From Thermoplasmata archaeon (GTDB lineage: Archaea > Thermoplasmatota > Thermoplasmata > Lutacidiplasmatales > UBA184): DNA of 64,000 bases. The stretch lies in assembly GCA_021816955.1 (NCBI GenBank), contig JAKAWP010000001.1:10290-74289 (forward strand), read 5' to 3'. Under the pieces are notes generated by a model. That model did not search any database, was not told the DNA's origin, and saw only the letters and a program-made list of their open reading frames with translations. This document shows, one piece after another, positions 2,300-15,645 of this stretch (its first letter is position 1; the number at the start of each line of letters is the position of its first letter). The translations under genes and the position numbers were made by a program.

Positions 2300-2367
2300 C
2301 GGGGGTCGCTCGCCGAAGGATTCGTACAACACCGATATCAACCGACCCCCCGTCCAACCGCCGTTCG

Positions 2368-3432
2368 ATGGCCGCGCATCGTTCGCGTCGCCGGTGGGCG
2401 TACGCTCGAATCGTTCCGTGGGGGGTGGTCGGCGTGCTGCTCCTCGCGCTCGCCGGCCCGGGGCTGTCGTGGGCGGCGCCGTACCACCGGTCGGTCGTCG
2501 AGGTCGGCTACGCTACGGCGATCCCCGGCGCCGCCCCCGGGCCGACGGTCCTACCGGTCAACCTCACGGACGCCCCCGCGTTCGATCCGAACAATCTCAC
2601 CGCCCCCGCCTCCGTCAACGTGACGCTGCGCCTGTCGAACACGGGCGCTTACGACCACACGTTCACGCTCTCAAGCGTCCCCGGTCGCGCCGTGTTGAAG
2701 CCGACCTGGACCCCGCGGCAGGTCGATCAGTTCTTCCAGAACCACACCCCGATCGTCAACGTCAGCGTCGCTCCCGGCGCCACGGTTGTCGTGAATCTAT
2801 CGTTCGCGCCGTCCCAGGCGCTCAACTACTACCAGTACGTCAGCGTCGTGCCGTACCAGTTCCAGGCGGGCATGGCCGGGGTCTTCTACGTGTCGGGTGG
2901 GAGCCCCTCGTACAACCTCACGGAGAGCACCACGGACAGCTTGTCGTTCCTTCCGAACGAGCTCGCCGTGCTCAACGTCACGCACTTTCCCGTGATCGCG
3001 CACGTCGTGGTGACGAACACCGGTACGTTCAGCCACACCTTCACGGTCTCGCCCCTCGCGAACTACACGATCTCGGTCGCGAACTACACCTCGTTCTTTT
3101 TCACCAACACGCCGCTGATCAGTCTCCCGGTGCCGAGCGGGGCCGGCAGCACGGTGGCCGGGAACCTCACGATTCGGGGCCCGGGGGTGTACGAGTACAT
3201 CTGCCTCATCCCCGGCCACTTCGCGGCCGGGATGTACGGGTTCTTGTACGTCAACCTCCCGCCCCCACCGCCCCCGCCCGCGCCGAGCACGGCGCTGATC
3301 CAAGGGTGGCTCCTCGGGATCGCCGCGATCTTCCTCGGCGTCGCGCTCGTGCTCGCGTTCGCGGTCTCGTACATCGGCCGCCGGCCTCGCGAGCCGACCC
3401 CCGTCCCCGAGTCCCCCGCCTCCCCTCACTGA
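2368..3432 (+). CDS. Membrane-anchored two-domain cupredoxin (sulfocyanin/halocyanin-like blue copper protein), sequon-rich
   Basis: Signal/TM at N-terminus; second domain has type-1 Cu ligands H..CLIPGHFAAGM (CX4HX4M); first domain lacks Cys; poly-Pro linker PPPPPPAP then C-terminal TM anchor; about 12 N-x-S/T sequons. Confidence 0.65.
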   Translation: MAAHRSRRRWAYARIVPWGVVGVLLLALAGPGLSWAAPYHRSVVEVGYATAIPGAAPGPTVLPVNLTDAPAFDPNNLTAPASVNVTLRLSNTGAYDHTFTLSSVPGRAVLKPTWTPRQVDQFFQNHTPIVNVSVAPGATVVVNLSFAPSQALNYYQYVSVVPYQFQAGMAGVFYVSGGSPSYNLTESTTDSLSFLPNELAVLNVTHFPVIAHVVVTNTGTFSHTFTVSPLANYTISVANYTSFFFTNTPLISLPVPSGAGSTVAGNLTIRGPGVYEYICLIPGHFAAGMYGFLYVNLPPPPPPPAPSTALIQGWLLGIAAIFLGVALVLAFAVSYIGRRPREPTPVPESPASPH

Positions 3433-3485
3433 GCCGCGGAGCGAAGCGCGGAACCGTTCCGTCGAGCCCGAGCGGCGGACGCGCA

Positions 3486-3506
3486 GGCGAAACCGCCGGT
3501 TTGCAT
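3486..3506. terminator. Palindromic element between convergent cupredoxin and coxII genes
   Basis: AAACCG-C-CGGTTT inverted repeat in the 138 bp convergent intergenic region. Confidence 0.2.
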
Positions 3507-3570
3507 CCGCACCGGCCGGGACGAGAGCGGCGAACCGTCTTGTCGCACGAAAGAGGACGACGGAGGGAGA

Positions 3571-4008
3571 CTAGGTCACGACGAGCAGCGAGCGCATGTC
3601 CCCGTGGCCCTCGCCGCAGAACTCGGTGCACTGGATGAGGTACGTCGTCCCCGGCGTGTTCGGCACCGTGAAGGCGATGCGGTTGATCCGGCCGGGAATC
3701 GCGTCCAACCGGACCCCGAGGGCGGGGATGTTGAACGAATGGACGACGGCCGTGCTCGTGATATTGAGCTGGATCAGGGCGCCCGCGGGGGCCCACAACG
3801 GGATGTCCGACGCGTTGGTCGCCCCGCAGCCGGTCTGGTTTTGATAGCAGAACTGCCAGTAGAACCGGTGCCCGATCACGGTCACGGTCTCGACCGGGTT
3901 CGGCGGGAGCTGGCCGAGGTTGTACAGCAGAAACGTGGAGTAGACCCCGACGCCGGCGATGAGGACGACGACCGCGAGGGTCCAGGCGAGTTCGACGCGG
4001 CTAGCCAT
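3571..4008 (-). CDS. coxB: Heme-copper oxidase subunit II (CuA cupredoxin, single TM)
   Basis: CuA motif H..CTEFCGEGHGDM; one N-terminal TM helix; 145 aa. Confidence 0.8.
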   Translation of the reverse strand: MASRVELAWTLAVVVLIAGVGVYSTFLLYNLGQLPPNPVETVTVIGHRFYWQFCYQNQTGCGATNASDIPLWAPAGALIQLNITSTAVVHSFNIPALGVRLDAIPGRINRIAFTVPNTPGTTYLIQCTEFCGEGHGDMRSLLVVT

Positions 4009-4225
4009 ATCGCCGGCGGCGCGTCGCGGGATCGCGGTAGCGCCAGATCGAGTAGAAGAGGAAGGCGAACGTGATCACCGCGCCTCCGGCCGCGATGCCC
4101 GTGATCACCCAGACGAGCGGCATCGTCTGCTCGATCGGGGTCTGGGCGGCAAACGCCGCGGCGCCCAGCGCGATGGCGGTGACGCCGGCGCTCCGTCGGA
4201 CGACTCCCCGTCCGGCGCTCAGAGT
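4001..4225 (-). CDS. Small membrane protein upstream of coxII (start uncertain)
   Basis: C-terminal TM segment MPLVWVITGIAAGGAVITFAFLFYSIW; overlaps coxII start by 8 bp; N-terminal part of the track ORF 4001..4645 looks like run-on. Confidence 0.3.
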   Translation of the reverse strand, partial: TLSAGRGVVRRSAGVTAIALGAAAFAAQTPIEQTMPLVWVITGIAAGGAVITFAFLFYSIWRYRDPATRRRRYG

Positions 4226-4391
4226 CGACACGTCGAACGCTCTGAGACGGAAGTTCTTATGGCCCGCGTACGAACGCGCGGCCGACCGTCCGCCCTCTCG
4301 ACTTCGGTCGGCGGGCCGTTCCCCCACCGCCGAGGGCGCACGGCCGTATGTACGGAACGGCTTTGAATCGACCGTAGCGTAGCGCCGCCGT

Positions 4392-5165
4392 ATGCCGAAA
4401 CGCGGGCCGCGGGTCGCGACTCTCGCTCGGGCCGTGACCGTGGGCGTCGTGTCGGTCGTGTTGCTGGCCGTGATCGGCGCTGGGGCGGCCCACCCGCCGC
4501 TCCCCGGGCTCCCGACGACGCCGTCCACGATCCGGACCGCCCAAGGATCGACCGTCGTCACGATCAGCGTGGGCGAGGCGTATGCGTTCTCCCCGAACAT
4601 CGTGAGCAACCTTCCGCTGAACACGACGATCGAATTCGACCTCATGACGGTCCAGCCGTCCGGCCACTACTTCACGCTCGTCAACGCGAGCAACGAAGGA
4701 TACGACATCGCGACCGGCCTCGGCGGCGGGAATCCGGGGTCGGTCACCCCCACGCAGCTCGACAATTTCTTTAAGAAGCACCCTCCGACCGTGAGTGTCG
4801 CGTTCGGAACGAACCCGGGCGACCAGGTCTTCATCAACATCACCTCCCTCCCGAAGGGATGGTACGAGTTCGTCTGCACGGTTGCTGGCCACTTCCAAGG
4901 CGGGATGTTCGGCTACCTCGCCTTCGGCATGGCCGTGCCCGGTAACCTGAGCGGCGGCGGTCCGACCAACGCCGTCGGCCTTCCCGTCTACATCATTGTC
5001 GGGACGATCGTCACCCTCGTCGTGATCGCGATGGTTCTCGGGTTTGTCATCGGACGGCGACGGCAGGGCGAGGAGATGCCGCCCGAGCGTCTCGGCTACC
5101 CGGAGCCGGCCCCTCCGTCCGCTCCCGAGACTCCCGCGGGCGGACCCCGCGGCCCCGCGCCGTAG
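4392..5165 (+). CDS. Membrane-anchored single-domain cupredoxin (sulfocyanin/halocyanin-like)
   Basis: Type-1 Cu ligands HYFT...CTVAGHFQGGM; N-terminal signal/TM, C-terminal TM anchor; N-x-S/T sequons. Confidence 0.7.
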   Translation: MPKRGPRVATLARAVTVGVVSVVLLAVIGAGAAHPPLPGLPTTPSTIRTAQGSTVVTISVGEAYAFSPNIVSNLPLNTTIEFDLMTVQPSGHYFTLVNASNEGYDIATGLGGGNPGSVTPTQLDNFFKKHPPTVSVAFGTNPGDQVFINITSLPKGWYEFVCTVAGHFQGGMFGYLAFGMAVPGNLSGGGPTNAVGLPVYIIVGTIVTLVVIAMVLGFVIGRRRQGEEMPPERLGYPEPAPPSAPETPAGGPRGPAP

Positions 5166-5269
5166 CCGAAGTTCGAACGGTACGCACCAGAACCAATACG
5201 CACGCAACGTTCAAAAAGGCAGGTCGGGTCTACCTACGAGCCTCGTAGTAGGTTCGTGGGGGAAAGTCG

Positions 5270-6310
5270 ATGGCGTGGGCGACGCCGAGCCGAGAGCGCC
5301 GGGTGCTGAAAGCGGGCCATTCGTCGATCGCGGTGACGCTGCCGAAACCGTGGGCCGAGGCGATGAACCTTCGACCGGGGGACCTCATCGTCTTCGACCA
5401 GAACGATGACGGCACGCTGTTCTTGAAACCCGCCCCGACCGGGGCCGTCGGGACACCGGCCGCGCCGTACCTCGTCCAAGGCCACGCCTTCGAGGTGCCG
5501 GGCATGATCGAGCGGCTTGTGGTGGCGGCGTACCGGGCCGGCCACGACGCGATTGAGATCCGCAGCGAACGGCCGTTCTCCCCCGAGCGGGTCGAGGAGC
5601 TGCACACCACGGCCCGGGGGCTGCTCGGCGTGAGCGTCGTCGCGCTCGAACCGAGCCGGGTCGTGCTGCAGAACTTCATCGACCCGTCGAAGTACGGCCT
5701 TCCCCAGCTCGTCCAGCGGATGAAGATGATCTTGGTCGCCTTCCTCGAGGAGATCGAGGAGCTTCTCGCCCGTCACAGCCGCACCCGTCGCCTCGCGACG
5801 CTCCAAGAGGAGGCGAACAAAGTCCTCGCGTTGCTCGTCCGCCAACTGTTCCTGGCGAGCCGGGACTGGTCGCTCGCGCGCCGGATCGGCTCGCCGGACC
5901 CGCGCCAACTGCTCGAGTGGCGGGTGGTCGTCCACGCCCTCGAGGAGCTCTCCCTTTTGTTCAAGGAGGCGGTGATCGCGCTGAACCAGGATCCGCAGAA
6001 GCTGACGGGGCTCACCGCGAGCCTCGAGGCGTTCCTGCCCGAGCTGAAGAGCCACCTCAAGCAGGTCGTCGACGCCCTCATGCATCCGTCCCTCGACCAC
6101 GCGTGCGAGGTGCACCACATGAGCGTCCAGCTCTGGGAGGCCGCGGGGGACGCGGCGGAGCGCCTCAAGGGGGTCGCGAAGCGCAACGGCGCCCACGCGG
6201 CCACGATGGCGCTGCAGCGGGGAACCAGCTGCCTCGCCCAACTCGCGAGCGTCGCCATCGACCGGGCCGTCGCGTCGGGCGGCGAAACGATCTTGGTCGA
6301 GGCGGCCTAG
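5270..6310 (+). CDS. AbrB/SpoVT-type DNA-binding domain fused to PhoU-like domain regulator
   Basis: N-terminal swapped-hairpin motif KAGHSSIAVTLPKPWAEAMNLRPGDLIVF followed by helical PhoU-like repeats. Confidence 0.55.
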   Translation: MAWATPSRERRVLKAGHSSIAVTLPKPWAEAMNLRPGDLIVFDQNDDGTLFLKPAPTGAVGTPAAPYLVQGHAFEVPGMIERLVVAAYRAGHDAIEIRSERPFSPERVEELHTTARGLLGVSVVALEPSRVVLQNFIDPSKYGLPQLVQRMKMILVAFLEEIEELLARHSRTRRLATLQEEANKVLALLVRQLFLASRDWSLARRIGSPDPRQLLEWRVVVHALEELSLLFKEAVIALNQDPQKLTGLTASLEAFLPELKSHLKQVVDALMHPSLDHACEVHHMSVQLWEAAGDAAERLKGVAKRNGAHAATMALQRGTSCLAQLASVAIDRAVASGGETILVEAA

Positions 6311-6419
6311 CCGCGGTCGGTCGTTCATAAGGGGCGCGTATGGACGGTCCCTACGCGTCGAGCCGTCCCGTACGAACCGCATATCCCCCGTCCCTCGCTC
6401 GGTCGGCGAGGTAACGCCG

Positions 6420-6626
6420 ATGTTCGACTCGATCGATGATTGGCTGATCATCGCGGTGGTCGCCGGAATCCTGTTCTATGGGTCGAGCAAGATTCCCGCC
6501 CTCGCGCGAAGTCTCGGCCGATCGGTGGGGGAGTTCAAGCGGGGACGGATGGAAGTCGACCGAGAGTTGAAGGCCGAGGCGGCGGCCCCGGCCGCGCCGG
6601 GGCCGAGCGCACCCCCTTCCCGATAG
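6420..6626 (+). CDS. tatA: Twin-arginine translocase TatA/E
   Basis: TM helix plus hinge and amphipathic helix LIIAVVAGILFYGSSKIPALARSLGRSVGEFKR; GAGGT-like SD upstream. Confidence 0.75.
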   Translation: MFDSIDDWLIIAVVAGILFYGSSKIPALARSLGRSVGEFKRGRMEVDRELKAEAAAPAAPGPSAPPSR

Positions 6627-6726
6627 ACCGCGGCCGCCGCGGGGGACGATGGAGCGTCGAGTCCGAACCGCCTCGTCCGGCCCGATGGGCCGGCGGAGGA
6701 GGACCGGCCGAGGTGGCTGGTGATCG

Positions 6727-7563
6727 ATGCGGGATCTCGACCGGATCCTTTCGGTTCTCGGAGAGGTTCGCCACCGGGCCGTCCGGATCGCGCTCGTGCT
6801 CGTCCCACTGTTCGGGTTCCTGATCGCGTTCCGGTTGGTCCGGTTCGAGGTGGCGATCGGGCCGTTCTCGTTCGTCTTCGCCTATCCGTTTCCGAGTCCG
6901 TTCGACAATGTCAGCGCCCAAGTGTTCCGGGCGATGGCCGCCTACGCGCTGCCGAGCGGGGTCTCCTTGCTCAACCTCGGGGTCGGCGATTCGGTCTTTG
7001 TCCAGATGGAGATCGCGCTGCTCCTCACGCTCATCTTCGGCATGCCGTGGATCGTCCACGAGGTCGGGGCGTTTTTGGTGCCGGCGCTTCGCCGCAACGA
7101 ACGCGGACTGATCCGCCAGATCGGTCTTCCCGCCACCGGACTGTTTGCGGTCGGCGCCCTGCTCGGCTTCTTCGTCCTGACGCCGTTCACGCTTCGGCTC
7201 CTGTTCCTGTACGTCGCCTCCCTGGGCCTGGCCCCTGCGATGGGCGTGCAGAGCTTCGCGACGTTCGTGCTGCTGTACTCCCTCGGTTTCGGGGTCGTCT
7301 TCGAGCTGCCGGTCTTCTTGTACGCGCTCACCCGGCTCGGGCTCGTTCGGGCGGCGACCTGGCGCAAGCAGTGGCGGGTCGCCGTGATCGCCTCGCTCGT
7401 CTTCGGCATGGTGATCACGCCGGACAATTCGGGGATCACGATGCTCCTGATCGCCGGTCCGATGTTCGGCCTCTACGCGGGCGGAGCGTACTTCGCGTCG
7501 CGCTACGAGCGGCTGCGCGACGCCGGTCGCGAACGCCCGATCGCCCCCACGGCCGGAGGCTAG
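6727..7563 (+). CDS. tatC: Twin-arginine translocase TatC
   Basis: 6-TM TatC architecture, 278 aa. Confidence 0.75.
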   Translation: MRDLDRILSVLGEVRHRAVRIALVLVPLFGFLIAFRLVRFEVAIGPFSFVFAYPFPSPFDNVSAQVFRAMAAYALPSGVSLLNLGVGDSVFVQMEIALLLTLIFGMPWIVHEVGAFLVPALRRNERGLIRQIGLPATGLFAVGALLGFFVLTPFTLRLLFLYVASLGLAPAMGVQSFATFVLLYSLGFGVVFELPVFLYALTRLGLVRAATWRKQWRVAVIASLVFGMVITPDNSGITMLLIAGPMFGLYAGGAYFASRYERLRDAGRERPIAPTAGG

Positions 7564-7567
7564 GCTA

Positions 7568-7960
7568 GTGTCGCTGTTCAGCGAGATGGACTGGATCGTG
7601 CTCCTCGCGATCGGGGGGCTCGTGCTGCTCGGCAACGGCGGAACCAGCGCGTTGCGGATGCTCGGGCGGCTCTACGGTCGGGCCGTGCGGATGAAGCGCG
7701 AGCTGCTGAGCGAAGTCGCCCGTGCGGCGGACCTCCCGCCGCCGATCGAAGGGCAGCCGACGAGCGTTCGCGCGATGCTCCTCGGCGTCGATCCGACTCC
7801 CGAATCGAACGTCCCGTCCGTCGCCGCCGCCATGGCGGTACCGCTCGCCGGCTTTTCCAGTCGGTCGGTCGCGACCGCTGCGCGCGCCGACGGGCCGCCG
7901 CCGAGCGTGTGGAGCCGCACCGTCCCGTTCGACCCGTCCGAAGCGAGGTGGACCCGGTGA
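7568..7960 (+). CDS. Second TatA/TatB-like protein
   Basis: DWIVLLAIGGLVLLGNGGTSALRMLGRLYGRAVRMKR: TM + Gly hinge + amphipathic helix as in TatA/B; longer C-terminal tail. Confidence 0.5.
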   Translation: MSLFSEMDWIVLLAIGGLVLLGNGGTSALRMLGRLYGRAVRMKRELLSEVARAADLPPPIEGQPTSVRAMLLGVDPTPESNVPSVAAAMAVPLAGFSSRSVATAARADGPPPSVWSRTVPFDPSEARWTR

Positions 7961-8145
7961 GCGCGCTCGACCCGGACCAGATCGTCACCCTCGCTGAGAT
8001 CCTGTTGGTGCTCGCCGGCGTCGGGATCCTGTGGGCCGTCTACCACGGGAGCGAATCCGCCGAGCTCCCGGGAGAGGCGACGATCCCGCCGCCCGGCGAG
8101 GCCGACGACGCGGTGCCGGACACCCGGGGGAGGACGCTCCAATGA
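7957..8145 (+). CDS. Small single-TM protein (possible respiratory complex accessory subunit)
   Basis: GTG 7957 overlaps upstream stop (GTGA); TM LAEILLVLAGVGILWAVY; stop overlaps Rieske ATG. Confidence 0.3.
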   Translation: MSALDPDQIVTLAEILLVLAGVGILWAVYHGSESAELPGEATIPPPGEADDAVPDTRGRTLQ

Positions 8146-8981
8146 ACGGCCTCGATTGCGACCCGACGTGTCCGTTCACGGTCGGACGGGCGCCGACCCT
8201 GGACTTCCCCGTCGGCCAGATCCACCGGGTTTCCATGCGCTCCTCCTCCTCCTCGGACGAGGGCGTCGACGAGACGAAGCGCAACCTCCTCAAGCTCCTC
8301 GCGATCGCGGGCGTGATCGGCGCCGGAGCCGGCGGGGTGGTCGGCGGCGCGCTGCAGTACGTACAGCCCCCGACCGTCGGGCTCGGGAGCTATCCCAAGA
8401 CGCAGCTTCTCGACCTCGACGGCTCGGCGCTGACCGTCGACACGGCGCTCCGAGAGTACAACTGGAAGACGAGCGAGCTCCACCTGTTCAACTACCCCCT
8501 CCAGAACGAGCCGAACTTCTTTCTCTGCCTCGAAGGCGCCCCGTTCAAGCCGCTCGGCGGAATCGGGGGGCCGAACCAAACGTCGGACCCGAACTCATCC
8601 CAGGGGCCGATCGTGGCGTTCAGCGCCATCTGCCAACACCTCGGCTGCCCCGCGCCGGCGATCTCCTACTACCCGCCCGGGACGTGTCCGAAGTTCAGCC
8701 CGTCCGGTGTGAACGGCCCGATGTCGTTCTACATCCACTGCTCGTGCCACGGATCGACGTACGACGTGACGGCGAACGCCGCCGTCCTGACCGGCCCGAC
8801 GCTCTACGCGCTCCCGCAGATCATTCTCGAGACGGATGCGGACGGGAACATCTACGCCGTGAACATGGCGAGCTTGAACGGCCAGCCGGTGAACGGCCAC
8901 CTGAGCAACCTCACGGGCGGCTACGGCGTCGGGTCGTCCCAGCAGCTCACGAAGGATACCCCCACGATCCTCTGTCCGTGA
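8142..8981 (+). CDS. Rieske [2Fe-2S] protein of a bc-type complex
   Basis: Rieske boxes CQHLGC and CSCHGS; KRNLLK twin-Arg-like motif before TM; GGAGG 8 bp upstream of ATG 8142. Confidence 0.8.
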   Translation: MNGLDCDPTCPFTVGRAPTLDFPVGQIHRVSMRSSSSSDEGVDETKRNLLKLLAIAGVIGAGAGGVVGGALQYVQPPTVGLGSYPKTQLLDLDGSALTVDTALREYNWKTSELHLFNYPLQNEPNFFLCLEGAPFKPLGGIGGPNQTSDPNSSQGPIVAFSAICQHLGCPAPAISYYPPGTCPKFSPSGVNGPMSFYIHCSCHGSTYDVTANAAVLTGPTLYALPQIILETDADGNIYAVNMASLNGQPVNGHLSNLTGGYGVGSSQQLTKDTPTILCP

Positions 8982-8982
8982 G

Positions 8983-10425
8983 GTGACCGCTCGGATGCTG
9001 GGACGATGGTACAACCGAAACCTGAACCGGCTCTGGACGTTCATCGAAGACCGAACGAGCATGCGGAAGTGGCCGCTACGGCCCCAGCCGCAGTTCACGT
9101 TCAAGCCGTCGTACTGGACCGGCGCCTTCGTCGTCAACGCCTTCCTGTACCAGGTCGTCTCGGGGATGCTGCTGCTCCTGTACTACCAGCCGAGCGTCTT
9201 CCCGACGCTCACGAACTGCGGCCAGACGCTCGGCACGCTCTCGCAGGCGCCGGCGGCGTGGTGCTCGACGTACTACATCATCCACTCAGTGCCGCTCGGC
9301 TCGCTCCTCCTCTCCTCCCACCTCTACGGCGCCTACGCGATGATCTTCCTGCTGTTCGTGCACCTCTACCGCGGCTACTACATGGGGGTCTACAAGAAGC
9401 CGCGCGAGTTTTCCTGGATGGTTGGCACCCTGCTCCTGCTCGCCACGCTCGGGATGGGGTTCACGGGGTATCTCCTGCCGTACACGGCGCTCAGCTACGG
9501 GGCGACGAACGTCGGGATCGTCCTCGCCGTCCGCACGCCGTACATCGGGACGATCCTCGCGCCGTTCATCCTCGGGGACGGCACGCCGCAAGGGCTGCTC
9601 AGCCGGATGTTCGCGGCGCACGTGGTGCTGATTCCGCTCGCTCTCGGCGCGCTGCTCGCCGTCCACCTCCTGCTGTTCGAGGCGCACGGGATCGCCCCGC
9701 CCGCGACCAGCGACCCCACCCAGCGCCGCCGGTTCACGGCGCGGGAGGACGAACGGCACGTGCCGTTCATGCCCCACATCTTCCTCTACATCACGAAGTG
9801 GGCGCTCCTCTACATCGGCGTCCTGCTCGGGATCGCGGCGCTCTGGCCGTGGAGCCTTCCGACGTACTACGGGAACACCGCGGCGGCCCAGGGGTTGATC
9901 ATCCCGGACTGGTACTTCCTCTGGCTGTTCAAGATCCTCGACTTCGTGTACAACACCACGCCGATCCCGGCGACGTTCGCGCTCGGGATCGGCACGGTCC
10001 TCTTGCTCTACTTCCTCTTCCTGCCGTGGCTCGACCGGTCGAAGCGCACCCATCCGCGCGACCGGCCATTCTTCATCTGGCTCGGGACGTCGCTCCTCGA
10101 GATGTTCGCCCTCCTGACGGTCTGGGGCGGATTCGAGCCGTCGATCCAGATCCAGCTCTTCACCTACACGAACGGCCTCACCCCCGTCGTGCTCCGTCTC
10201 GGGCCGCTCTTCGCGGTGAACGCGGTGGCGATCGCGATCTTCCACTACCGGTACACGGCGAGCTACCGTCGACGGCTCGAGGAGCGCCTGCCTCGATTTC
10301 CGGGCATCTACGCCCCGATCGACGTCGTCGCGCCGCCACGGGGCCGGCCGACACCGACGGCCTCGTCGTCCGGGGCGGGGCCGCTGGCGCGAGCGGCGCC
10401 GTCGTCGGGAGGGGACCGCGCATGA
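8983..10425 (+). CDS. Cytochrome b of bc/b6-type complex
   Basis: Multi-TM cytochrome b fold with conserved His-bearing helices; 480 aa. Confidence 0.75.
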   Translation: MTARMLGRWYNRNLNRLWTFIEDRTSMRKWPLRPQPQFTFKPSYWTGAFVVNAFLYQVVSGMLLLLYYQPSVFPTLTNCGQTLGTLSQAPAAWCSTYYIIHSVPLGSLLLSSHLYGAYAMIFLLFVHLYRGYYMGVYKKPREFSWMVGTLLLLATLGMGFTGYLLPYTALSYGATNVGIVLAVRTPYIGTILAPFILGDGTPQGLLSRMFAAHVVLIPLALGALLAVHLLLFEAHGIAPPATSDPTQRRRFTAREDERHVPFMPHIFLYITKWALLYIGVLLGIAALWPWSLPTYYGNTAAAQGLIIPDWYFLWLFKILDFVYNTTPIPATFALGIGTVLLLYFLFLPWLDRSKRTHPRDRPFFIWLGTSLLEMFALLTVWGGFEPSIQIQLFTYTNGLTPVVLRLGPLFAVNAVAIAIFHYRYTASYRRRLEERLPRFPGIYAPIDVVAPPRGRPTPTASSSGAGPLARAAPSSGGDRA

Positions 10426-10685
10426 GCGACGAGGTTCCGCGATGGACGACCGGCGTGCTCTGGGGGATCCTCGCCGTGCTGCTCGTCCTCGGCACGGTCG
10501 GCGCCGGGACGGTCGTCTACGGGTTTCTCGGGCTCGTCGGCCACGCCCCGAATGCGTTCGACGCGATCGCGCTCGCGGTCGGAGCGATCGTGGCGGTCCT
10601 CGCGTTCCTGTTCATGGCCGGCATCCTCTACCGCGTCGACCGCTACCGCGGCGTTCCCCACCGGGAGGTGAAGCTGTTTGAGTGA
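10422..10685 (+). CDS. Small 2-TM membrane protein
   Basis: ATG 10422 overlaps cyt b stop (ATGA); two hydrophobic helices; strong GC3 coding bias; hidden inside the long track ORF 9006..10685. Confidence 0.4.
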   Translation: MSDEVPRWTTGVLWGILAVLLVLGTVGAGTVVYGFLGLVGHAPNAFDAIALAVGAIVAVLAFLFMAGILYRVDRYRGVPHREVKLFE

Positions 10686-11073
10686 GCTGACCGATCTCAC
10701 GCCCGCGGAGCTGAACGCGATCCGCGAACGATTGTTTCGCTGGTACGGGGCGATCACGGCGATCGCCCTCGGCGTGATGGCCGTCCTGATCGCCTACGTC
10801 ATCGTCTACGGCATGGGGTTCGCCGGCCCGGGGCTCGCAAGCCCGGGCGGGCAGCAATCTGTCGGATTCGCCTTGGCGATGCTCTTGCTCTTGGCCGCGC
10901 TCCTCGTCCATTTGGTTGACCGGATCTACCGGGTCTGGCCGTTCGGACGGAAGGTCGAGGTCCTCGTTCCCCGCCCGCTCACGATCGAGAGCCAGGTCCT
11001 GCTCCTCAAGGTGCTGGTCGCCGTCTTCGCGGCCGCGGGGATCGGATGGTTGATCGCGGGGTTGCTCACATGA
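10678..11073 (+). CDS. 3-4 TM membrane protein
   Basis: TTG start overlapping upstream stop; GGGAGGTG SD upstream; hydrophobic. Confidence 0.4.
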
Positions 11074-11086
11074 GCGCGGAGGATCG

Positions 11087-12802
11087 ATGACGTTCGTCGC
11101 CATCCCGGACGCGAGCACGTTCGGCCTGGTCGTCCTGATCGCGGGCCTCGCGGCGTTCTTGCTCTGGACCCTCTTCTATCACGGCGACTGGGTCGTTCGG
11201 ACGGTGAAGAAGTACCTCTTCACCACCGACCACCGCCGGATCGGCTGGATGTACATCACCACGGGGTTCGTCTTCTTCTTCATCGGCGGGATCTACGCGA
11301 TGCTGATCCGCACCGACCTGGGCTTCGTCCAGGGGCTCGGCCTCGACCCGCAGACGACGCTCGGCATCTCGCCGGAGGTCTACTCGAGCCTCTTCACGAT
11401 GCACGGGGTGCTGATGATCTTCATGTTCATCATGCCCGTCTTGGCCGGCTTCGGAAACTTCCTCGTCCCGTCGATGATCGGCGCCCGGGAGATGGCGCTC
11501 CCGCGGATCAACGCGATCGCGTTCTGGCTAATCCCTCCGGCGGGGATTCTCCTCGTCATCTCCAATGCGAACGCCGGGTGGACCGGCTACGTCCCGTTGA
11601 GCGTGCTCACGCCGGGAATCGGGATCGACCTCTGGATCCTCGGGCTGCACATCCTCACGATCTCGAGCATCCTCGGCGCGGTGAACTTCCTCGTCACGAT
11701 CATGAAGCACCGCGCGCCCGGCGTCGAGTACTGGAACATGCCGCTCTTCGTCTGGGCGACGTTCGTCAACTCGATCCTCTTGCTCTTCGCGCTCCCGAGT
11801 CTGTCGATCGCGCTCACGTTCGTCCTGAGCGATCGGAATTTCGGGACGAGCATCCTCGCGGCCGTCAACGGGACGCCGCTCGGCGGCGCGCTCCTCTACC
11901 AGAACCTGTTCTGGTTTTTCGCGCATCCCGAGGTCTACATCATGGTCCTGCCGGCGTTCGGCCTGATCTCCACGATCATCCCGAAGCTCGCGCGCAAGGA
12001 CATCTACGGCTACGCCGCCATGGTGATCGCGATCGGCGTCTTCGCGGTGCTCAGCTTCGCCGTCTGGGAGCACCACATGTTCGTGACCGGGATCGACGAG
12101 AACATCCGGTTCGTCTTCATGCTCACGACGATGGCGATCGCCGTCCCGTCGGCCGTGAAGACGTTCAACTGGGTCGCGACGCTCTGGGGCGGCCGGATCT
12201 GGATGGCGGTGCCGATGTGGTTCTGCGTGGCGTTCATCACCGGGTTCGTCATCGGCGGCCTGTCGGGCCTCTACCTCGCCTCGATCCCGGTCGACTACCT
12301 CTACCACGGGACGTACTTCGTCGTCGCCCACTTCCACTACATCCTGCTCGGCGGCACGCTCATGGCGATCTTCGCGGCGATCTACTTCTATTTCCCGGTG
12401 CTCACTCGGCGCTGGTACAGCCAGCGGCTCGGCCACACGCACTTTCTGCTGACGTATGTCGGCGTCAACCTGCTCCTCTTCCCGATGTTCATCCTCGGGG
12501 CGGAGGGGATGCCGCGGCGGGTCTACACGTACCTGTGGGCCGGCAACTTCCAGGCGCTCAACTTCCTCTCGACCCTCGGGGCGTACATCTTCGCGATCGG
12601 CCAGCTGGTCTTCGTCTTCAACATGGTCTACAGCTACTTCGCGGGCGCTCCGGTGACGTCCGACGATCCGTGGGGCGAGCCCCTCGCGAGCTCGATCCGG
12701 GGGCCCGCACCGGTCCCGGTCCCGTTGCGCGTGCCGGTCCCGACCGCGACGGAGGCGTCGGCCGCCGCGAGCGGCGGCGCGCCGTCCGACCCGGTCGGCT
12801 AG
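11087..12802 (+). CDS. coxA: Heme-copper oxidase subunit I
   Basis: 12-TM CoxI with conserved His ligand helices; 571 aa. Confidence 0.85.
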
Positions 12803-12814
12803 CGAGGACGGCCG

Positions 12815-13405
12815 ATGCGAGGGCATGACGCGTTCCGCTACCTCGTCTTGATCGCGCTCGCGCTCGCGTATGTCACGATCCTGCTCGGGGGGAACGTCGC
12901 GGCGAGCGATTCGGGACTCGCCTGCCCGACCTGGCCGCTCTGCCGTCCGGGCGCGGGCCTCTGGCCGTCCGGCCTCGACGGCGGGGTGCTGATCGAGTGG
13001 TCCCATCGGGTGGCGGCGTTCGTGCTGAGCGCCAGCATCGCCGCGTTCACCCTCCTCGCGCTCGTATTCGAGCGGCGCCGCCCGGCGCTCCAGCGGCTCA
13101 GCTTCGCGGCGGCGGGGCTCGTCCTCGTCCAGGTGCTGCTCGGCGGTCTCGTCGTCGACACGGACCTCTCCGTCGCCGCGGTCGTCGCGCATCTCGGGAT
13201 GGCGACGGCGCTCTTCGGCGTGCTCGTCGTTCTCGCCGCGGTGGCGAACCTCCCGGCGATCCCGCGCCGGTGGCTCGCTTGGCTCCGCCGGGCCGGGGAG
13301 GAAGCCCCGCCGACCGCGCCCGAGTCCCGTCCCGGACGGGAGGCCGTTCCGGCCGGCGCCCCGGAGCCGATAGCGGCCGCGGTCGGCGGCCGGCCCGGGA
13401 GCTAA
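12815..13405 (+). CDS. ctaA: Heme A synthase (short 4-TM CtaA type)
   Basis: Loop motif GLACPTWPLC and His-bearing TM helices (EWSHRVAAF, AHLGMATALFG). Confidence 0.65.
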   Translation: MRGHDAFRYLVLIALALAYVTILLGGNVAASDSGLACPTWPLCRPGAGLWPSGLDGGVLIEWSHRVAAFVLSASIAAFTLLALVFERRRPALQRLSFAAAGLVLVQVLLGGLVVDTDLSVAAVVAHLGMATALFGVLVVLAAVANLPAIPRRWLAWLRRAGEEAPPTAPESRPGREAVPAGAPEPIAAAVGGRPGS

Positions 13406-13430
13406 AGCGACCGGGGTCGCTGCGGATCCG

Positions 13431-14360
13431 ATGGCCGCGTCGCCCCCGTCCCCCGATCGGCGCGAACGCCTCGGGCCGAGTCGATGGCGGGATTATCTCA
13501 CGCTCACCAAGCCCGGGATCTCGGCGTTGATCGTCGCGGTCGCGGTCGGAGGGTACTCCCTCGCGCTCCCGTCACCCATCGACCCCGTCCGTCTCGCGAT
13601 CCTCGCGCTCTCGGGCGCGACCGCCTCGTTTGGGGCGGCGATGCTGAACCACTACCTCGACCGAGACCTCGATCGAACGATGGCCCGGACCCAGCACCGC
13701 CCGCTCGCGGACGGCCGGGTCCGATCCGAGCGGGGCGTTGCGGCGGCCGGACTCGTCCTGTCGGCCGTCGGCGTCGGAGCCGCCACCGTACTGCTCAATC
13801 CCCTGACCGGGGTGTCGATACTCCTCGGCGGCGTCACCTACGTCCTCATCTACACGGCTTGGTTGAAGCGCCGCTCGAGCTGGAACATCGTGATCGGAGG
13901 GTTCGCGGGGAGTGCGCCGGTCCTCGCGGGGAGCGCCGCAGCGGTCGGAGGGTGGACGCCGGCCGCGATCGCCTTCGCCGTCCTCGTCTTCTTTTGGACC
14001 CCGCCGCACTTCTGGAGCCTCGCCGTCCTGCTGCGGGACGATTACCGGCGCGCGGGCCTCCCGATGCTCCCGCGGATGGACGACCTCGCCTACTCGGGCC
14101 GCGTGATCGTCGTCAGCACGCTCGCCCTGTTCGCCTCGACGGGGGCGCTCGTCGCGACCGGCACCCTTGCGTGGCCGATCGCCGTCGTGGCGCTTGCCCT
14201 CGGGGCGACGTTCGTCGGGCTGACCGCCCCGATGTGGAAGGGCGCGATGCGCCGCGCGGCCCGTCGCGGCTTCTTCTACTCGGGGCCGTACCTCCTCGCG
14301 CTCGTCGTGGCCGTGATCATCAATTGGCCGCTCGTCGGCCGGGGGGTCGGGGGCTGGTAG
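13431..14360 (+). CDS. ctaB: Protoheme IX farnesyltransferase (heme O synthase, UbiA family)
   Basis: UbiA-family polyprenyltransferase, 9 TM; follows ctaA. Confidence 0.8.
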   Translation: MAASPPSPDRRERLGPSRWRDYLTLTKPGISALIVAVAVGGYSLALPSPIDPVRLAILALSGATASFGAAMLNHYLDRDLDRTMARTQHRPLADGRVRSERGVAAAGLVLSAVGVGAATVLLNPLTGVSILLGGVTYVLIYTAWLKRRSSWNIVIGGFAGSAPVLAGSAAAVGGWTPAAIAFAVLVFFWTPPHFWSLAVLLRDDYRRAGLPMLPRMDDLAYSGRVIVVSTLALFASTGALVATGTLAWPIAVVALALGATFVGLTAPMWKGAMRRAARRGFFYSGPYLLALVVAVIINWPLVGRGVGGW

Positions 14361-14388: not shown

Positions 14389-15162
14389 TTGTGGCGGACA
14401 GGTCACCGCAAGCTTATGTCGCGTACGCGTACTGAAGCATCGATGAGCTCGAGCGAACCGTCGCCGCCCACGTCGTCGTCCGCCTCGGACGGCCGTGTGC
14501 GGGCGGCCGAAACCGTCCTGCGCCGGCTCGGCTTCTCCCGGGCCCGATCGGTCCGCGGCGACTCCGCCGCCCGGGCCGCCTTCTGGGTCGAGCCACCGGG
14601 CGACCGGGGGCCGCGGCCGGTCTACCTCGTCTCGGGCGACTCGGCCGACGAGTCGACCCCGAAGGAGCGATGGCTCCCGGGGATCCGGTCCGTGCGGGCG
14701 CGTCGGGGGATTTGGGTGGTTCCTACCGATCGGGTCGCGGAAGCCGTCTCGGCCGAGCTCCGCGCGCAAGCGCGCCCCGGCGACGACGAGCCGCCGTCGA
14801 TCCTTGTCGTTCCCCCGGAGCCGCCGGCGGGAGAGAGCCCGCATTGGTACCTCGCCAGCGTCTCCCGGTCGGAACTGTTGCGCCTCGCGACCGGGGTGGT
14901 CGTCGGGCTGTTCCGCCGGGCGCAGCGCGACGGCGGCGGTAACGCCGTCGACTTCGGCGAGATGCTCGAACTTTTGCGGCGAAAGTTCGGCGTCGACCCG
15001 GCCGCGTCGTTGGGCGTCGACGACGACGAATCGGCGCTCTTTTTGCTGTACCAGCTCGCCCTGCGCGACACGTGGGCGCCGGGGGACGGCGGCGCGAACC
15101 TCCACCTCCTCGTCTTGAAGCCGACCGGCCCGGCCGCGCGCCTTCCGTGGTTTGCCGCCTAG
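14389..15162 (+). CDS. Hypothetical protein (start ambiguous: 14389, 14416 or 14443)
   Basis: GC3-biased ORF with no recognisable motif. Confidence 0.35.
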   Translation: MWRTGHRKLMSRTRTEASMSSSEPSPPTSSSASDGRVRAAETVLRRLGFSRARSVRGDSAARAAFWVEPPGDRGPRPVYLVSGDSADESTPKERWLPGIRSVRARRGIWVVPTDRVAEAVSAELRAQARPGDDEPPSILVVPPEPPAGESPHWYLASVSRSELLRLATGVVVGLFRRAQRDGGGNAVDFGEMLELLRRKFGVDPAASLGVDDDESALFLLYQLALRDTWAPGDGGANLHLLVLKPTGPAARLPWFAA

Positions 15163-15222: not shown

Positions 15223-15408
15223 ATGGACGAACCGTCCGTACCGTTCCGCTCGCCGTTCACCCCGTATCCCGGCGGTGCGACTGCCCCTCCGGACGAACCC
15301 CCCGAGGTGAGCCGGCGGGAATTGTGGACGTTCTTCTGGTTCTCGATCCTTTCGAGCGCGATCATCGGCGGCGCGGGGGTCGTAGCGTTCTTCCTGGCCA
15401 CCCGCTGA
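15223..15408 (+). CDS. Small 1-TM hypothetical protein
   Basis: 61 aa, C-terminal TM WTFFWFSILSSAIIGGAGVVAFFLA. Confidence 0.25.
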   Translation: MDEPSVPFRSPFTPYPGGATAPPDEPPEVSRRELWTFFWFSILSSAIIGGAGVVAFFLATR

Positions 15409-15466: not shown

Positions 15467-15541
15467 GGGGCCGTGGGGTAGCTTGGACCATCCTTCTTGC
15501 TTGGGGTGCAAGAGACTCCGATTCAAATTCGGACGGCCCCA
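15467..15541 (+). tRNA. tRNA-Pro (anticodon GGG), CCA not encoded
   Basis: 7-bp acceptor stem GGGGCCG/CGGCCCC, anticodon stem CTTGC/GCAAG with loop TTGGGGT (U33, GGG, G37), T-arm TCCGA-TTCAAAT-TCGGA, discriminator A; D-arm irregular. Confidence 0.6.
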
Positions 15542-15645
15542 CCGACCCTCGGGGAGCGGCCCGCGCGGGTCGGTCGGTTCGGTGCCGTCCCCCCCGTCGG
15601 GCCGTCCCGAACCGTTCTATCCTCTCGCGGCCCTTCCCGACGGCG

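Follow-up and report, generated by a model that had tools for sequence, protein, structure and literature searches.

The SoxM system of Sulfolobus acidocaldarius (SoxEFGHIM), reportedly described as a terminal oxidase supercomplex by Komorowski et al. in 2002, joins a Rieske/cytochrome b module to a CuA-containing A-type oxidase, with a membrane-bound blue copper protein in place of cytochrome c. To our knowledge, neither tat nor ctaA/ctaB belongs to the sox gene row, unlike the Lutacidiplasmatales cluster described here. The ba3 oxidase of Thermus thermophilus, a B-type enzyme, contains a separate single-helix peptide, subunit IIa, beside a one-helix CuA subunit II, and this additional helix reportedly has opposite polarity. 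In the obligate bc-aa3 assembly of Actinobacteria, CIII2CIV2 (QcrCAB-CtaCDEF; 6ADQ, 6HWH, 7RH5, 8HCR, 7Q21), menaquinol is used, the carrier is membrane-bound rather than a soluble cytochrome c, and QcrA is exported by Tat; the complex includes subunits III and IV and its operon lacks tat genes. Linkage and co-expression of a translocase with the genes of exported proteins is known from Bacilli (phoD-tatAd-tatCd, and efeB/ywbN near tatAy-tatCy), where additional specialised Tat copies serve single hydrolytic or iron-uptake enzymes (PMC3827258).

The locus itself has already been described gene by gene in Ca. Lutacidiplasma silvani (AcS3-62_00358-00372; Sheridan et al. 2022, Nat Commun 13:4110, PMC9287336, text and Supplementary Data 9), and the arrangement reported here is therefore a rediscovery. 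Fifteen genes of the window recur in the published locus, with order and strand unchanged and sizes that match (155/76/228/346/70/276/131/61/268/451/88/122/567/191/307 aa). Sheridan et al. assigned coxA to the A1 type, considered blue copper proteins to be likely electron carriers, noted that tat adjoins complexes III and IV and heme A/O synthesis, and found all Thermoplasmatota genomes to lack cytochrome c. They named TatC 'tatB', listed six proteins as of unknown function, and left Tat signals and promoters, as well as the TatB-like gene and the subunit II split, outside their analysis. The window, the 64,000-nt stretch of DNA analysed here, comes from a different species: its cytochrome b is 61-76% identical to those of the 80 species representatives of the order, and it carries an extra two-domain cupredoxin gene, which the Ca. 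L. silvani type genome (locus L050 of our synteny set) lacks at that position. Beyond the published description, we identified the 131-aa protein of Ca. L. silvani as a TatA/B-family paralogue, and report the subunit II split, the Tat motifs of the Rieske protein and the two-domain cupredoxin, a promoter element and a candidate regulator.

The locus is, with high probability, the aerobic respiratory gene cluster of an uncultured acid-soil archaeon (~70% GC) of the soil order Lutacidiplasmatales (Thermoplasmata). The features are listed in Table 1. An initial annotation of the sequence had placed eleven genes in a row on the + strand between 6420 and 14360, and the GC3 frame plot, the Pfam and NCBIfam matches and the public gene calls, which are identical for this sequence, all agreed with it. 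In our reading the row starts with tatA and tatC, continues with a TatB-like paralogue, the gene for a 62-aa membrane protein, those for Rieske and cytochrome b and two for small membrane proteins, and ends with A1-type coxI, a compact ctaA and ctaB. Its statement that all junctions are ATGA/GTGA overlaps or gaps under 30 bp held at nine of the ten, the exception being the tatA-tatC spacer. Specifically, tatC and the TatB-like gene are 4 nt apart, overlaps occur at 7957 (GTGA), 8142 and 10422 (both ATGA) and 10678 (8 nt), and the other gaps are 13, 13, 12 and 25 nt. These overlaps (4-8 nt) and short gaps (4-25 nt) are conserved across related loci. The annotation had put three genes on the other strand; this is correct for the CuA subunit II, but both cupredoxins are encoded on the + strand. 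The 76-aa ORF, the regulator gene and the 248-aa gene were absent from it. The window was found to contain no additional tat, Rieske or cox gene, and no cluster protein contains a c-type heme motif.

Table 1. Features of the respiratory locus (positions in the window)
Feature	Position	Strand	Evidence or remark
Promoter element CGTACAACACCGATAT (CGTAC-N7-ATAT)	2323-2338	+	29 nt upstream of two-domain cupredoxin; 40/57 loci
Two-domain membrane-anchored cupredoxin, 354 aa	2368-3432	+	PF00127 4e-5; Cupredoxin_1 1e-3
coxII, C-terminal fragment of subunit II, 145 aa	3571-4008	-	TM2 + CuA domain
76-aa ORF	4001-4231	-	signal-like segment + TM1; public 76-aa gene call
Promoter element CGTACGCGGGCCATAA	4257-4272	-	25 nt upstream of 76-aa ORF-coxII; 33/57 loci
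Promoter element GTACGGAACGGCTTTGAAT	4350-4368	+	23 nt upstream of single-domain cupredoxin; 47/56 loci
Single-domain membrane-anchored cupredoxin, 257 aa	4392-5165	+	copper site CTVAGHFQGGM
TTCAAAAA box	5206-5219		upstream of palindrome
Perfect palindrome ACCTACGAGCCTCGTAGTAGGT	5232-5253	+	17 nt upstream of regulator gene, 3' of TTCAAAAA box
Regulator candidate, 346 aa	5270-6310	+	PF04014 4e-10; between single-domain cupredoxin and tatA
Promoter element CGTACGAACCGCATAT	6369-6384	+	35 nt upstream of tatA; 26/64 loci (strict pattern)
tatA, 68 aa	6420-6626	+	PF02416 4e-12; TIGR01411 55.8 bits, above cutoff
tatA-tatC spacer, 100 nt	6627-6726	+	length conserved; SD-like GGAGG at its end
tatC, 278 aa	6727-7563	+	PF00902 3e-42; TatC-Arch 2e-46
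TatA/B-family paralogue (TatB-like), 130 aa	7568-7960	+	hhalign to TatA family
62-aa single-TM protein	7957-8145	+	GTGA overlap upstream, ATGA downstream
Rieske [2Fe-2S] protein, 279 aa	8142-8981	+	PF00355 5.5e-6; motifs CQHLGC, CSCHGS
Cytochrome b, fused N- and C-terminal domains	8983-10425	+	profile match 5e-40
87-aa two-TM protein	10422-10685	+	order-specific; conserved GILYRVDRYRG...LFE*
131-aa three-TM protein	10678-11073	+	order-specific; conserved H-x-VDRTYR-x-WPLGRR
coxI, heme-copper oxidase subunit I, A1 type, 571 aa	11087-12802	+	COX1 6e-145
ctaA, compact heme A synthase, 196 aa	12815-13405	+	COX15/CtaA 1.6e-20
ctaB, heme O synthase, 309 aa	13431-14360	+	UbiA 2e-45; TIGR01473 253.7 bits
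248-aa soluble conserved protein	14416-15162	+	55 nt 3' of ctaB

In a synteny comparison, the order and strand of the eleven genes were identical in all 38 related loci holding the complete set, none of 716 adjacent gene pairs in related loci broke the order, and the upstream block was colinear in 56/56 loci. The arrangement is not due to chance. The entire 20-kb neighbourhood, including unrelated heptose-pathway, FtsJ and endonuclease genes, was equally syntenic, so synteny by itself does not prove function. The 248-aa gene, syntenic in all 54 loci where it was found, may be the final gene of the tatA..ctaB unit; its product had no Pfam or PDB match.

Four promoters, those of both cupredoxins, the 76-aa ORF-coxII unit and tatA, have a CGTAC-N7-ATAT element in common. 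This pattern occurs three times in the window (0.05 expected), and 146 of its 154 matches in 1.27 Mb of related loci lie within 200 nt upstream of these four units. It is missing from the flanking housekeeping genes, and within the same 1.27 Mb it does not occur upstream of any gene from tatC through ctaB. The stretch ahead of tatA (6324-6362) also contains additional TACG-type repeats and a TTCATAA box. CoxII, both cupredoxins and the regulator belong to transcription units separate from the row. The proposal that Tat is co-transcribed with its clients is not supported for the cupredoxins, which have their own units; the row itself contains no internal promoter-like element. Judging from this absence and from the spacing of the genes, tatA..ctaB is most likely co-transcribed. 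The row might instead comprise several independent units placed head to tail, for example tatA, tatC to cytochrome b, and coxI-ctaA-ctaB. The tatA-tatC spacer has a conserved length (median 104 nt, n=62 loci), suggestive of some function, and in many loci contains a GGCATG motif; it could harbour a promoter or a processing site beyond the reach of these scans. Moreover, AT is mildly enriched (0.45) ~25-30 nt before coxI, where an internal promoter is therefore possible, and across related loci the gap from ctaA to ctaB has a median of 33 nt and that from ctaB to the next gene one of 53 nt. Against such a division, the spacer contains neither an AT-rich box (AT fraction 0.18-0.30) nor significant RNA structure and ends in an SD-like sequence ahead of tatC, six junctions overlap or have gaps no wider than 13 nt, and the shared element is absent inside the row. 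We thus consider several units unlikely and retain a single tatA..ctaB unit as the preferred reading.

The Tat assignments of the initial annotation, including that of a second TatA/B-like gene, were upheld by profile searches. The paralogue had a weak Pfam TatA_B_E match in 5/25 members, and hhalign aligned it with the TatA family at 96.1% probability (E 3.3e-9, 49 columns). Its architecture comprises a TM helix, a Gly hinge, an amphipathic helix and a long tail. According to PMC9287336 (Supplementary Data 9), every Lutacidiplasmatales genome has one copy each of the tatA and tatC families. Being the genome's sole Tat system, it must handle whatever other Tat clients exist and is not strictly dedicated to respiration; calling the module "self-contained" was too strong. 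The single-copy status is also what would be expected if the adjacency were incidental, that is, if a housekeeping Tat lay beside respiratory genes in an arrangement that has become fixed across the Lutacidiplasmatales, with no regulatory or functional coupling beyond the Rieske protein's general need for Tat. The equal synteny of unrelated neighbours and the 100 nt between tatA and tatC fit this explanation as well. However, the tatC, TatB-like, 62-aa and Rieske genes are linked through the 4-nt gap and the GTGA and ATGA overlaps, and the promoter element of tatA is that of the cupredoxin and subunit II units, not of the flanking housekeeping genes. Furthermore, Thermoplasmatota-wide, tat families are found only where Rieske or cytochrome b is present, and TMEG-bg1, which lacks cox, retains tatA-tatC-UnF-UnF-Rieske-cyt b, including the 62-aa protein gene (PMC9287336, Supplementary Data 9). 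Incidental adjacency is accordingly improbable in our view. In the preferred reading of a coupled tat-headed cluster, and unlike in Bacilli, the cell's sole Tat is tied to a whole respiratory chain.

Clients bearing Tat motifs were identified within the cluster, as had been claimed. The Rieske protein begins with a conserved cytoplasmic extension, after which come the Tat motif TKRNLLK and a TM anchor, and the motif T-[K/R]-R-N-x-L-K is invariant among the orthologues. Rieske proteins, including those with KR/RK variants, are Tat substrates (PMC6251230), and QcrA of B. subtilis is a substrate of TatAyCy (PMC3827258). The two cupredoxins are indeed membrane-anchored, each having an N-terminal signal, a C-terminal TM anchor and a copper site. 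The larger one has two domains, both paralogous to the single-domain protein: domain 1 lacks copper ligands and domain 2 carries C-x2-H-x4-M (CLIPGHFAAGM). It also contains 11 N-x-S/T sequons, and its N-terminal RRR signal has a twin arginine in 42/46 orthologues. By contrast, RR occurs in 34/56 orthologues of the single-domain cupredoxin, whose start codons are uncertain, and the window copy has KRGPR only; this protein may be exported via Sec instead. Cupredoxins usually receive their copper outside the cell and hence need not be exported by Tat.

Cytochrome b, for which the public call begins at ATG 8995 (476 aa), contains four invariant His residues and the Qo-site motif PDWY. No solved relatives of the 87-aa and 131-aa membrane proteins were found, and no relationship was detected between the two. 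CoxI contains the motifs HPEVY, WEHHMF and HFHY. As the initial annotation stated, subunit I is unfused, and profile searches yielded neither a domain nor a gene for subunit III; the row closes with the synthases for heme O and heme A. CtaB exceeds the TIGR01473 cutoff (210.3 bits). CtaA corresponds to half a bacterial CtaA: it covers only the C-terminal half of the COX15-CtaA profile (179-322 of 322) and matches residues 173-297 of B. subtilis CtaA (6A2J; 5e-14).

The likeness to SoxM drawn in the initial annotation holds for function, in that quinol, Rieske/cytochrome b, a blue copper protein and a CuA oxidase would operate without cytochrome c, but not for family membership. Were the cluster an orthologue of the Sulfolobus SoxM operon (soxEFGHIM), by inheritance or by transfer from Sulfolobales, one could point to SoxF as the nearest solved Rieske structure (1JM1, 1e-11; next 5e-5), to SoxL2 (6e-30) and SoxC (1.6e-72) as the best NCBIfam models for Rieske and cytochrome b, to the replacement of cytochrome c by a blue copper protein, to the single TM helix of the CuA subunit II, and to a faint, below-cutoff Pfam SoxE match (0.03) at the copper loop of the single-domain cupredoxin. 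Yet every Sox-model match is far under its cutoff (104 vs 582; 245 vs 740), and neither cupredoxin reaches the threshold of the NCBIfam or Pfam sulfocyanin models. Unlike in SoxM, subunit I is not fused to III, subunit II is split, and the small subunits differ, being order-specific. CoxI fits bacterial-type CtaD_CoxA best (594 bits; SoxB-type 72 bits), and its nearest solved sequences are those of actinobacterial supercomplex oxidases (4e-125). Finally, Sheridan et al. (PMC9287336) placed coxA, coxB and ctaA/B separately in phylogenies. Orthology with SoxM is thus very unlikely.

Subunit II, according to sequence comparison, is split. The coxII product has all CuA ligands (H...CTEFCGEGHGDM) and matches COX2 (1.4e-18) and TIGR02866 CoxB (5e-35), the latter limited to profile positions 54-191. 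The 76-aa ORF, with a conserved core and the C-terminus ...FRDPxxxxRRYG*, overlaps the coxII ATG by 8 nt, as it does in 55/57 loci. When the two were concatenated, the CoxB match grew to positions 7-191 and gained 20-24 bits, as compared with 1-7 bits for controls. Unlike subunit IIa of ba3, the peptide lines up, in register, with the first TM helix of canonical A-type CoxB models, which indicates a true fission product.

Together, these data are best explained by a tat-headed respiratory cluster that probably combines Tat export, heme A supply and shared regulation. Electrons would pass from membrane quinol to a Rieske/cytochrome b complex without cytochrome c1, then via one or two membrane-anchored blue copper proteins to CuA of subunit II, and on to the A1-type heme-copper oxidase, which would reduce O2. 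The complexes may form a supercomplex, in which the bridge would be a cupredoxin rather than the di-heme cytochrome cc of Actinobacteria. The tatA..ctaB row, most likely a single transcription unit, would be headed by the genome's only Tat translocase, predicted to export the folded Rieske [2Fe-2S] domain with the uncleaved signal remaining as membrane anchor, and probably the RR-bearing cupredoxins as tail-anchored proteins. CtaB and the compact CtaA would supply the heme A needed by CoxI, and the two - strand pieces of subunit II, TM1 (76 aa) and TM2 + CuA (145 aa), are predicted to be translationally coupled.

The cupredoxin, subunit II and tat-to-ctaB units, which have a CGTAC-N7-TATA-like element in common, probably respond to the same control, possibly that of the AbrB-PhoU-like protein whose gene lies between them. 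This candidate regulator, linked to the motif by adjacency only, combines a DNA-binding N-terminus of the AbrB/SpoVT type with a small alpha/beta domain and a helical bundle resembling PhoU. In Foldseek searches with its AF2 model (pLDDT 82.6), the best 16 PDB matches were all PhoU or PhoU-like, at weak E-values (0.04-0.4). The palindrome ACCTACGAGCCTCGTAGTAGGT occurs once in the window; about half of shuffles also give one match at a relaxed setting, so its support comes from conservation and not from its count. It is conserved in nearly all loci and is a probable operator.

Raw ORF lists for the window were full of artefacts because its GC content is ~70%. The gene map was based on a third-position GC (GC3) frame plot, Pfam and NCBIfam scans, and public gene calls for the identical sequence; these were mutually consistent and gave a single map (table). 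The row of eleven plus-strand genes from tatA to ctaB was recovered in the order initially annotated. The tight junctions described for this row hold at nine of ten positions (a 4-nt gap, one GTGA and two ATGA junctions, an 8-nt overlap, and gaps of 13, 13, 12 and 25 nt) and fail between tatA and tatC, which are 100 nt apart. Both cupredoxin genes, previously assigned to the opposite strand, lie on the plus strand; the minus strand carries only coxII and the 76-aa ORF. The latter ORF had been overlooked, as had the 346-aa regulator-like gene between the single-domain cupredoxin gene and tatA. The small ORFs were accepted as genes because all are conserved among related loci.

Genes of the respiratory cluster and the downstream tRNA gene (window coordinates)
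Feature	Position	Strand
Two-domain cupredoxin	2368-3432	+
CuA subunit II (coxII)	3571-4008	-
76-aa ORF	4001-4231	-
Single-domain cupredoxin	4392-5165	+
AbrB-type protein, 346 aa	5270-6310	+
tatA	6420-6626	+
tatC	6727-7563	+
130-aa TatA-like protein	7568-7960	+
62-aa membrane protein	7957-8145	+
Rieske	8142-8981	+
Cytochrome b	8983/8995-10425	+
87-aa membrane protein	10422-10685	+
131-aa membrane protein	10678-11073	+
coxI	11087-12802	+
Half-size ctaA	12815-13405	+
ctaB	13431-14360	+
Conserved 248-aa protein	14416-15162	+
tRNA-Pro, anticodon GGG	15467-15543	+

The downstream limit of the cluster is set by the tRNA-Pro gene, which sits in a 483-nt gap between the gene for the 248-aa protein and ftsJ. 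Immediately ahead of the tRNA gene lies a 61-aa ORF (15223-15408) whose GC3 is coding-like. No relative of the 248-aa protein was found in Pfam or the PDB. The 87- and 131-aa membrane proteins gave nothing significant in Pfam. As remnants of oxidase subunits III or IV they were rejected, PDB profile matches being at chance level only (E 0.36 or worse), and as paralogues of each other likewise (hhalign probability 0.4%).

Cytochrome b returned hundreds of relatives at 61-76% identity, of which every named one was a "Thermoplasmata archaeon" MAG. A genome scan using one genome per species yielded 310 loci. The best 80, which were examined further, were all from Thermoplasmata, including UBA184 and Candidatus Lutacidiplasma silvani; these 80 loci and the TatC and cytochrome b homologue lists fell entirely within the one order. 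When 23 window proteins were mapped onto related loci, gene order and strands were identical across the mapped loci. All 38 loci having the eleven genes were colinear, with no order violation in 716 adjacent pairs, the upstream block showed no change in any of 56 loci, and junction lengths were likewise conserved. Overall, the arrangement is real and far from chance. A haloarchaeal origin, suggested by the 70% GC, was rejected: the proteins are not acidic and the relatives are all Thermoplasmata.

Synteny with the respiratory cluster is just as strict for three genes further upstream (16-2299), which encode an HddA-like GHMP sugar kinase, a GmhA-like sedoheptulose-7-phosphate isomerase and a CBS-domain protein, as it is for the cluster genes themselves, so that gene order in Lutacidiplasmatales is frozen over at least 20 kb. 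The two-domain cupredoxin is apparently absent from eleven loci of the synteny set (L002, L042, L044, L050, L056, L061, L063, L066, L075, L078 and L079), including that of the type species, where the two-domain query matched the single-domain paralogue only; this fits the published family copy number of 2-3. At L081 (13361-15076; GCA_027322125.1), a window-identical sequence from a second public assembly of the same organism, coxI was called as ORFs of 81 and 467 aa, as against the intact 571-aa gene of the window, which is probably due to an assembly frameshift.

The order, with ~69% GC and from acid soils, was named Lutacidiplasmatales by Sheridan et al. 2022 (PMC9287336), who listed a reference locus gene by gene in their Supplementary Data 9, with sizes and strands matching the window. 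Our finding is thus a rediscovery and adds no new system. According to these data, every genome of the order has one copy each of tatA and tatC, the latter mislabelled tatB. The description of the cluster as a self-contained module was therefore overstated, as the cluster holds the cell's only Tat system. Other orders lack the six families of unknown function as well as the short ctaA family, and TMEG-bg1 lacks cox and retains tatA, tatC, two unknowns, Rieske and cytochrome b (PMC9287336). Of the six published genes of unknown function, three receive an annotation and a testable hypothesis here, as a TatB-like subunit, the split-off first transmembrane helix (TM1) of subunit II and an AbrB-PhoU regulator candidate; a promoter element defining the regulon is also added. 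These annotations are modest, testable extensions.

CoxI comprises a single COX1 domain (residues 51-501). As initially annotated, it is an unfused subunit I of 571 aa: no COX3 match was found in it, and Pfam and NCBIfam identified no subunit III gene within the cluster. Its sequence contains the motifs MHG, HPEVY, WEHHMF, HFHY, GFGNF and PRINA, and the Lys of PSAVKTFNW. The six His ligands are complete, HPEVY supplies both Glu and Tyr, and the residues of the K- and D-channels are present, with Glu instead of Asp at the D-channel entrance (GAREMALPR). The protein scored 594 bits against TIGR02891, below the equivalog cutoff of 671, and its closest solved relatives are actinobacterial CIII2CIV2 oxidases (4e-125). 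CoxI carries the sequence features of an A1-type heme-copper oxygen reductase, the type to which all coxA of Thermoplasmatota belong (PMC9287336). The Rieske protein has both cluster-binding boxes, CQHLGC and CSCHGS, and cytochrome b has the invariant H113, H127, H213 and H228 and the Qo-site P308-D-W-Y311 (PDWY). The CxxCH motif that a c-type subunit (c1, f or cc) would carry does not occur in any of the 17 cluster proteins, and no Thermoplasmatota genome encodes cytochrome c (PMC9287336). The two cupredoxins are paralogues of each other.

The 196-aa short CtaA aligned to positions 179-322 of the 322 in the COX15 profile and corresponds to the C-terminal half of Bacillus subtilis CtaA (residues 173-297). 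The compact archaeal heme A synthase of the Aeropyrum type has four TM helices and ~190 aa, half of the eight-TM bacterial CtaA; its hallmarks are a conserved Cys pair and His ligands. The window protein contains CPTWPLC and two TM His residues, and four TM helices are reported for it (PMC9287336). It fits the compact type and is a predicted heme A synthase. CtaB was identified as a heme O synthase by equivalog TIGR01473 (253.7 bits, above the cutoff of 210.3).

The SoxM supercomplex of Sulfolobales comprises SoxM, a fusion of subunits I and III, the CuA subunit II SoxH, a SoxF-type Rieske protein, the sulfocyanin SoxE (PF06525/TIGR03094), the cytochrome b SoxG with heme A-type groups, and SoxI. 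By contrast, the window CoxI is unfused. A CuA-containing subunit II is present, as in SoxM, and is probably split between two ORFs. Among solved structures, SoxF of the Sulfolobus SoxM complex (1JM1, 1.1e-11) is nearest to the Rieske protein, and the NCBIfam SoxL2 model gave 104 bits versus a cutoff of 582; the best model for cytochrome b was SoxC, with 245 bits versus a cutoff of 740. The cupredoxins were rejected as sulfocyanins: there was no NCBIfam sulfocyanin match at E < 0.01, and PF06525 matched the copper loop only (E 0.03, 14.3 bits versus a cutoff of 21). Because two defining features fail, the I+III fusion and sulfocyanin, the cluster is not a SoxM family member, and the SoxM likeness initially noted stands in function and not in family membership. 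Blue copper proteins have been proposed as the electron carriers, with reference to SoxM (PMC9287336); with them in place of cytochrome c, the chain would function in a SoxM-like manner.

CoxII has a COX2 domain (1.4e-18) with the full ligand set H...C-x-E-x-C-x3-H-x2-M. It lacks TM1, as its match to the NCBIfam CoxB model begins only at profile position 54. The 76-aa ORF has a conserved core consisting of TNLQxT, a TM helix and a C-terminal FRDPxxxxRRYG*, and in 55 of 57 loci its 3' end overlaps the coxII start codon by 8 nt. Concatenating the two window peptides raised the CoxB score from 120.8 to 140.4 bits, as one match over profile positions 7-191. Similar gains were obtained at two related loci, L005 (108.8 to 132.9 bits) and L013 (115.1 to 134.5 bits); control fusions of the window CoxII with reversed, shuffled or unrelated TM peptides gained 1.0-6.7 bits only. 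Pfam COX2_TM matched just one of eight concatenated sequences (E 0.067), and the CoxB model rather than COX2_TM was decisive. The charge distribution of the two peptides fits a canonical N-out TM1 and N-in TM2. Together, these data point to fission of the subunit II gene in the cytoplasmic loop.

The Tat assignments of tatA and tatC were well supported by the profile scans. TatC matched PF00902 above cutoff (3e-42), its best NCBIfam model being TatC-Arch (158.5 bits, below the equivalog cutoff of 192.6), and TatA matched PF02416 (4e-12) and TIGR01411 (55.8 bits, above the 53.9 cutoff). TatA proteins have an N-terminal TM helix, a Gly hinge and an amphipathic helix. The window copy of the 130-aa protein had no direct Pfam or NCBIfam match, and TatA_B_E matched only 5 of 25 orthologues, weakly. 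A profile of these 25 orthologues nevertheless aligned with the TatA profile (hhalign probability 96.1%, E 3.3e-9) over the TM helix, hinge and amphipathic helix. The protein, labelled "UnF" in PMC9287336, starts 4 nt past the end of tatC; together with its length, this makes a TatB-like role plausible.

Tat signals follow a pattern of the (S/T)-R-R-x-F-L-K type. Every Rieske orthologue has T-[K/R]-R-N-[VIL]-L-K immediately ahead of its single hydrophobic segment. Of 46 orthologues of the two-domain cupredoxin, 42 have RR just before the h-region; for the single-domain protein RR is present in 34 of 56, the window copy not being among these. Both cupredoxins have a C-terminal TM anchor, which with the RR would make them predicted tail-anchored Tat clients, a known class. 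The orthologue comparison revealed no RR-type Tat signal in CoxII. Elsewhere in the window, a crude search for RR signals turned up no convincing further clients, yet it missed one known client owing to start-codon handling and so carries no weight. That Rieske proteins are Tat substrates is well established and extends to KR/RK variants (PMC6251230; PMC3827258). All Rieske orthologues share a conserved ~50-aa cytoplasmic extension before the Tat motif (residues 1-50, window 8142-8290), with a Cys pair (C-x4-5-C-P) and the motif (L)DFPVGQVRRVA. It is unusual as the n-region of a Tat signal and may serve as a binding site for a chaperone or for quality control. Sequons of the N-x-S/T type cluster in exported domains: the two-domain cupredoxin has 11, the single-domain one 4, and CoxII and Rieske have 3 each. 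The polytopic membrane subunits TatC, cytochrome b and CoxI have at most one and the cytoplasmic cluster proteins none, a distribution that suggests N-glycosylation of the extracytoplasmic redox proteins.

AT-richness profiles across loci revealed clear AT boxes upstream of tatA, the regulator gene and the cupredoxin genes. No TATA-like box is present in the tatA-tatC spacer (AT fraction 0.18-0.30), and there is no strong one elsewhere inside tatA..ctaB, the enrichment ahead of coxI peaking at 0.45 only. Four promoters, those of the two-domain cupredoxin, the 76-aa ORF-coxII pair, the single-domain cupredoxin and the tatA row, have in common (TT)CGTAC(GAA) followed after 7-8 nt by ATAT, ATAA or TTTGAA, 23-35 nt before the start codon. 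CGTAC-N7-ATAW occurs three times in the window versus 0.05 expected, each time at one of these promoter positions. Of 154 matches in 1.27 Mb of related loci, 146 lie ≤200 nt upstream of the four units and the remaining eight in the same spacers; none was found upstream of tatC through ctaB or of any flanking gene. From these data we infer the transcription units and their regulation.

The regulator gene has its own AT box and a perfect palindrome (5232-5253) that occurs once in the window. In a relaxed palindrome search about half of the shuffles also gave one match, so support for the palindrome comes from its conservation across loci. Pfam identified an AbrB/SpoVT DNA-binding N-terminus in the product, which some sources name a phosphate uptake regulator. 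The AlphaFold model is confident (pLDDT 82.6) with a C-terminal bundle whose top 16 PDB matches are all PhoU or PhoU-like, at weak E-values. Adjacency makes this AbrB-PhoU protein the candidate regulator for the shared element.

It is possible, if somewhat doubtful, that the cluster is a self-regulating respiratory regulon combining Tat, a split CuA subunit and four-unit control. TatA, TatC and the TatB-like paralogue would then form a three-component archaeal system serving chiefly the cluster's own Rieske and tail-anchored cupredoxins. In the A-type oxidase, the gene for CuA subunit II would have split within the TM1-TM2 loop, and the subunit would be synthesized as a pair of translationally coupled peptides. 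The CGTAC-N7-TATA element would coordinate the four transcription units; its reader would be the AbrB-PhoU protein encoded in the cluster, which would autoregulate through its palindromic operator. The locus illustrates how an aerobic chain free of cytochrome c is built in an uncultured and globally common order of soil archaea, with the only exporter of folded proteins genetically tied to the Fe-S and copper proteins needing it. To our knowledge, archaeal Tat biology has barely been studied outside haloarchaea; if the annotations and the promoter element added here are confirmed, they would turn the locus into a compact model of Tat-dependent assembly of archaeal respiratory complexes.

An attenuator or stabilising hairpin in the tatA-tatC spacer was rejected, as 12 orthologous spacers fold no better than shuffles (z -1.6 to +1.2). 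The spacer is conserved in length (median 104 nt) and not in sequence or predicted structure. Many orthologous spacers (loci L005-L050) have GGCATG(C) ~25 nt past the tatA stop, which the window spacer (6627-6726) lacks. Between the regulator stop and the tatA element (6324-6362) lie a conserved TTTATC/TTCATAA box, at about -96 from tatA and with an AT fraction of 0.70 across loci, and two TACGGAC-like repeats, which may represent a second promoter, an array of sites for the regulator or a terminator of its gene.
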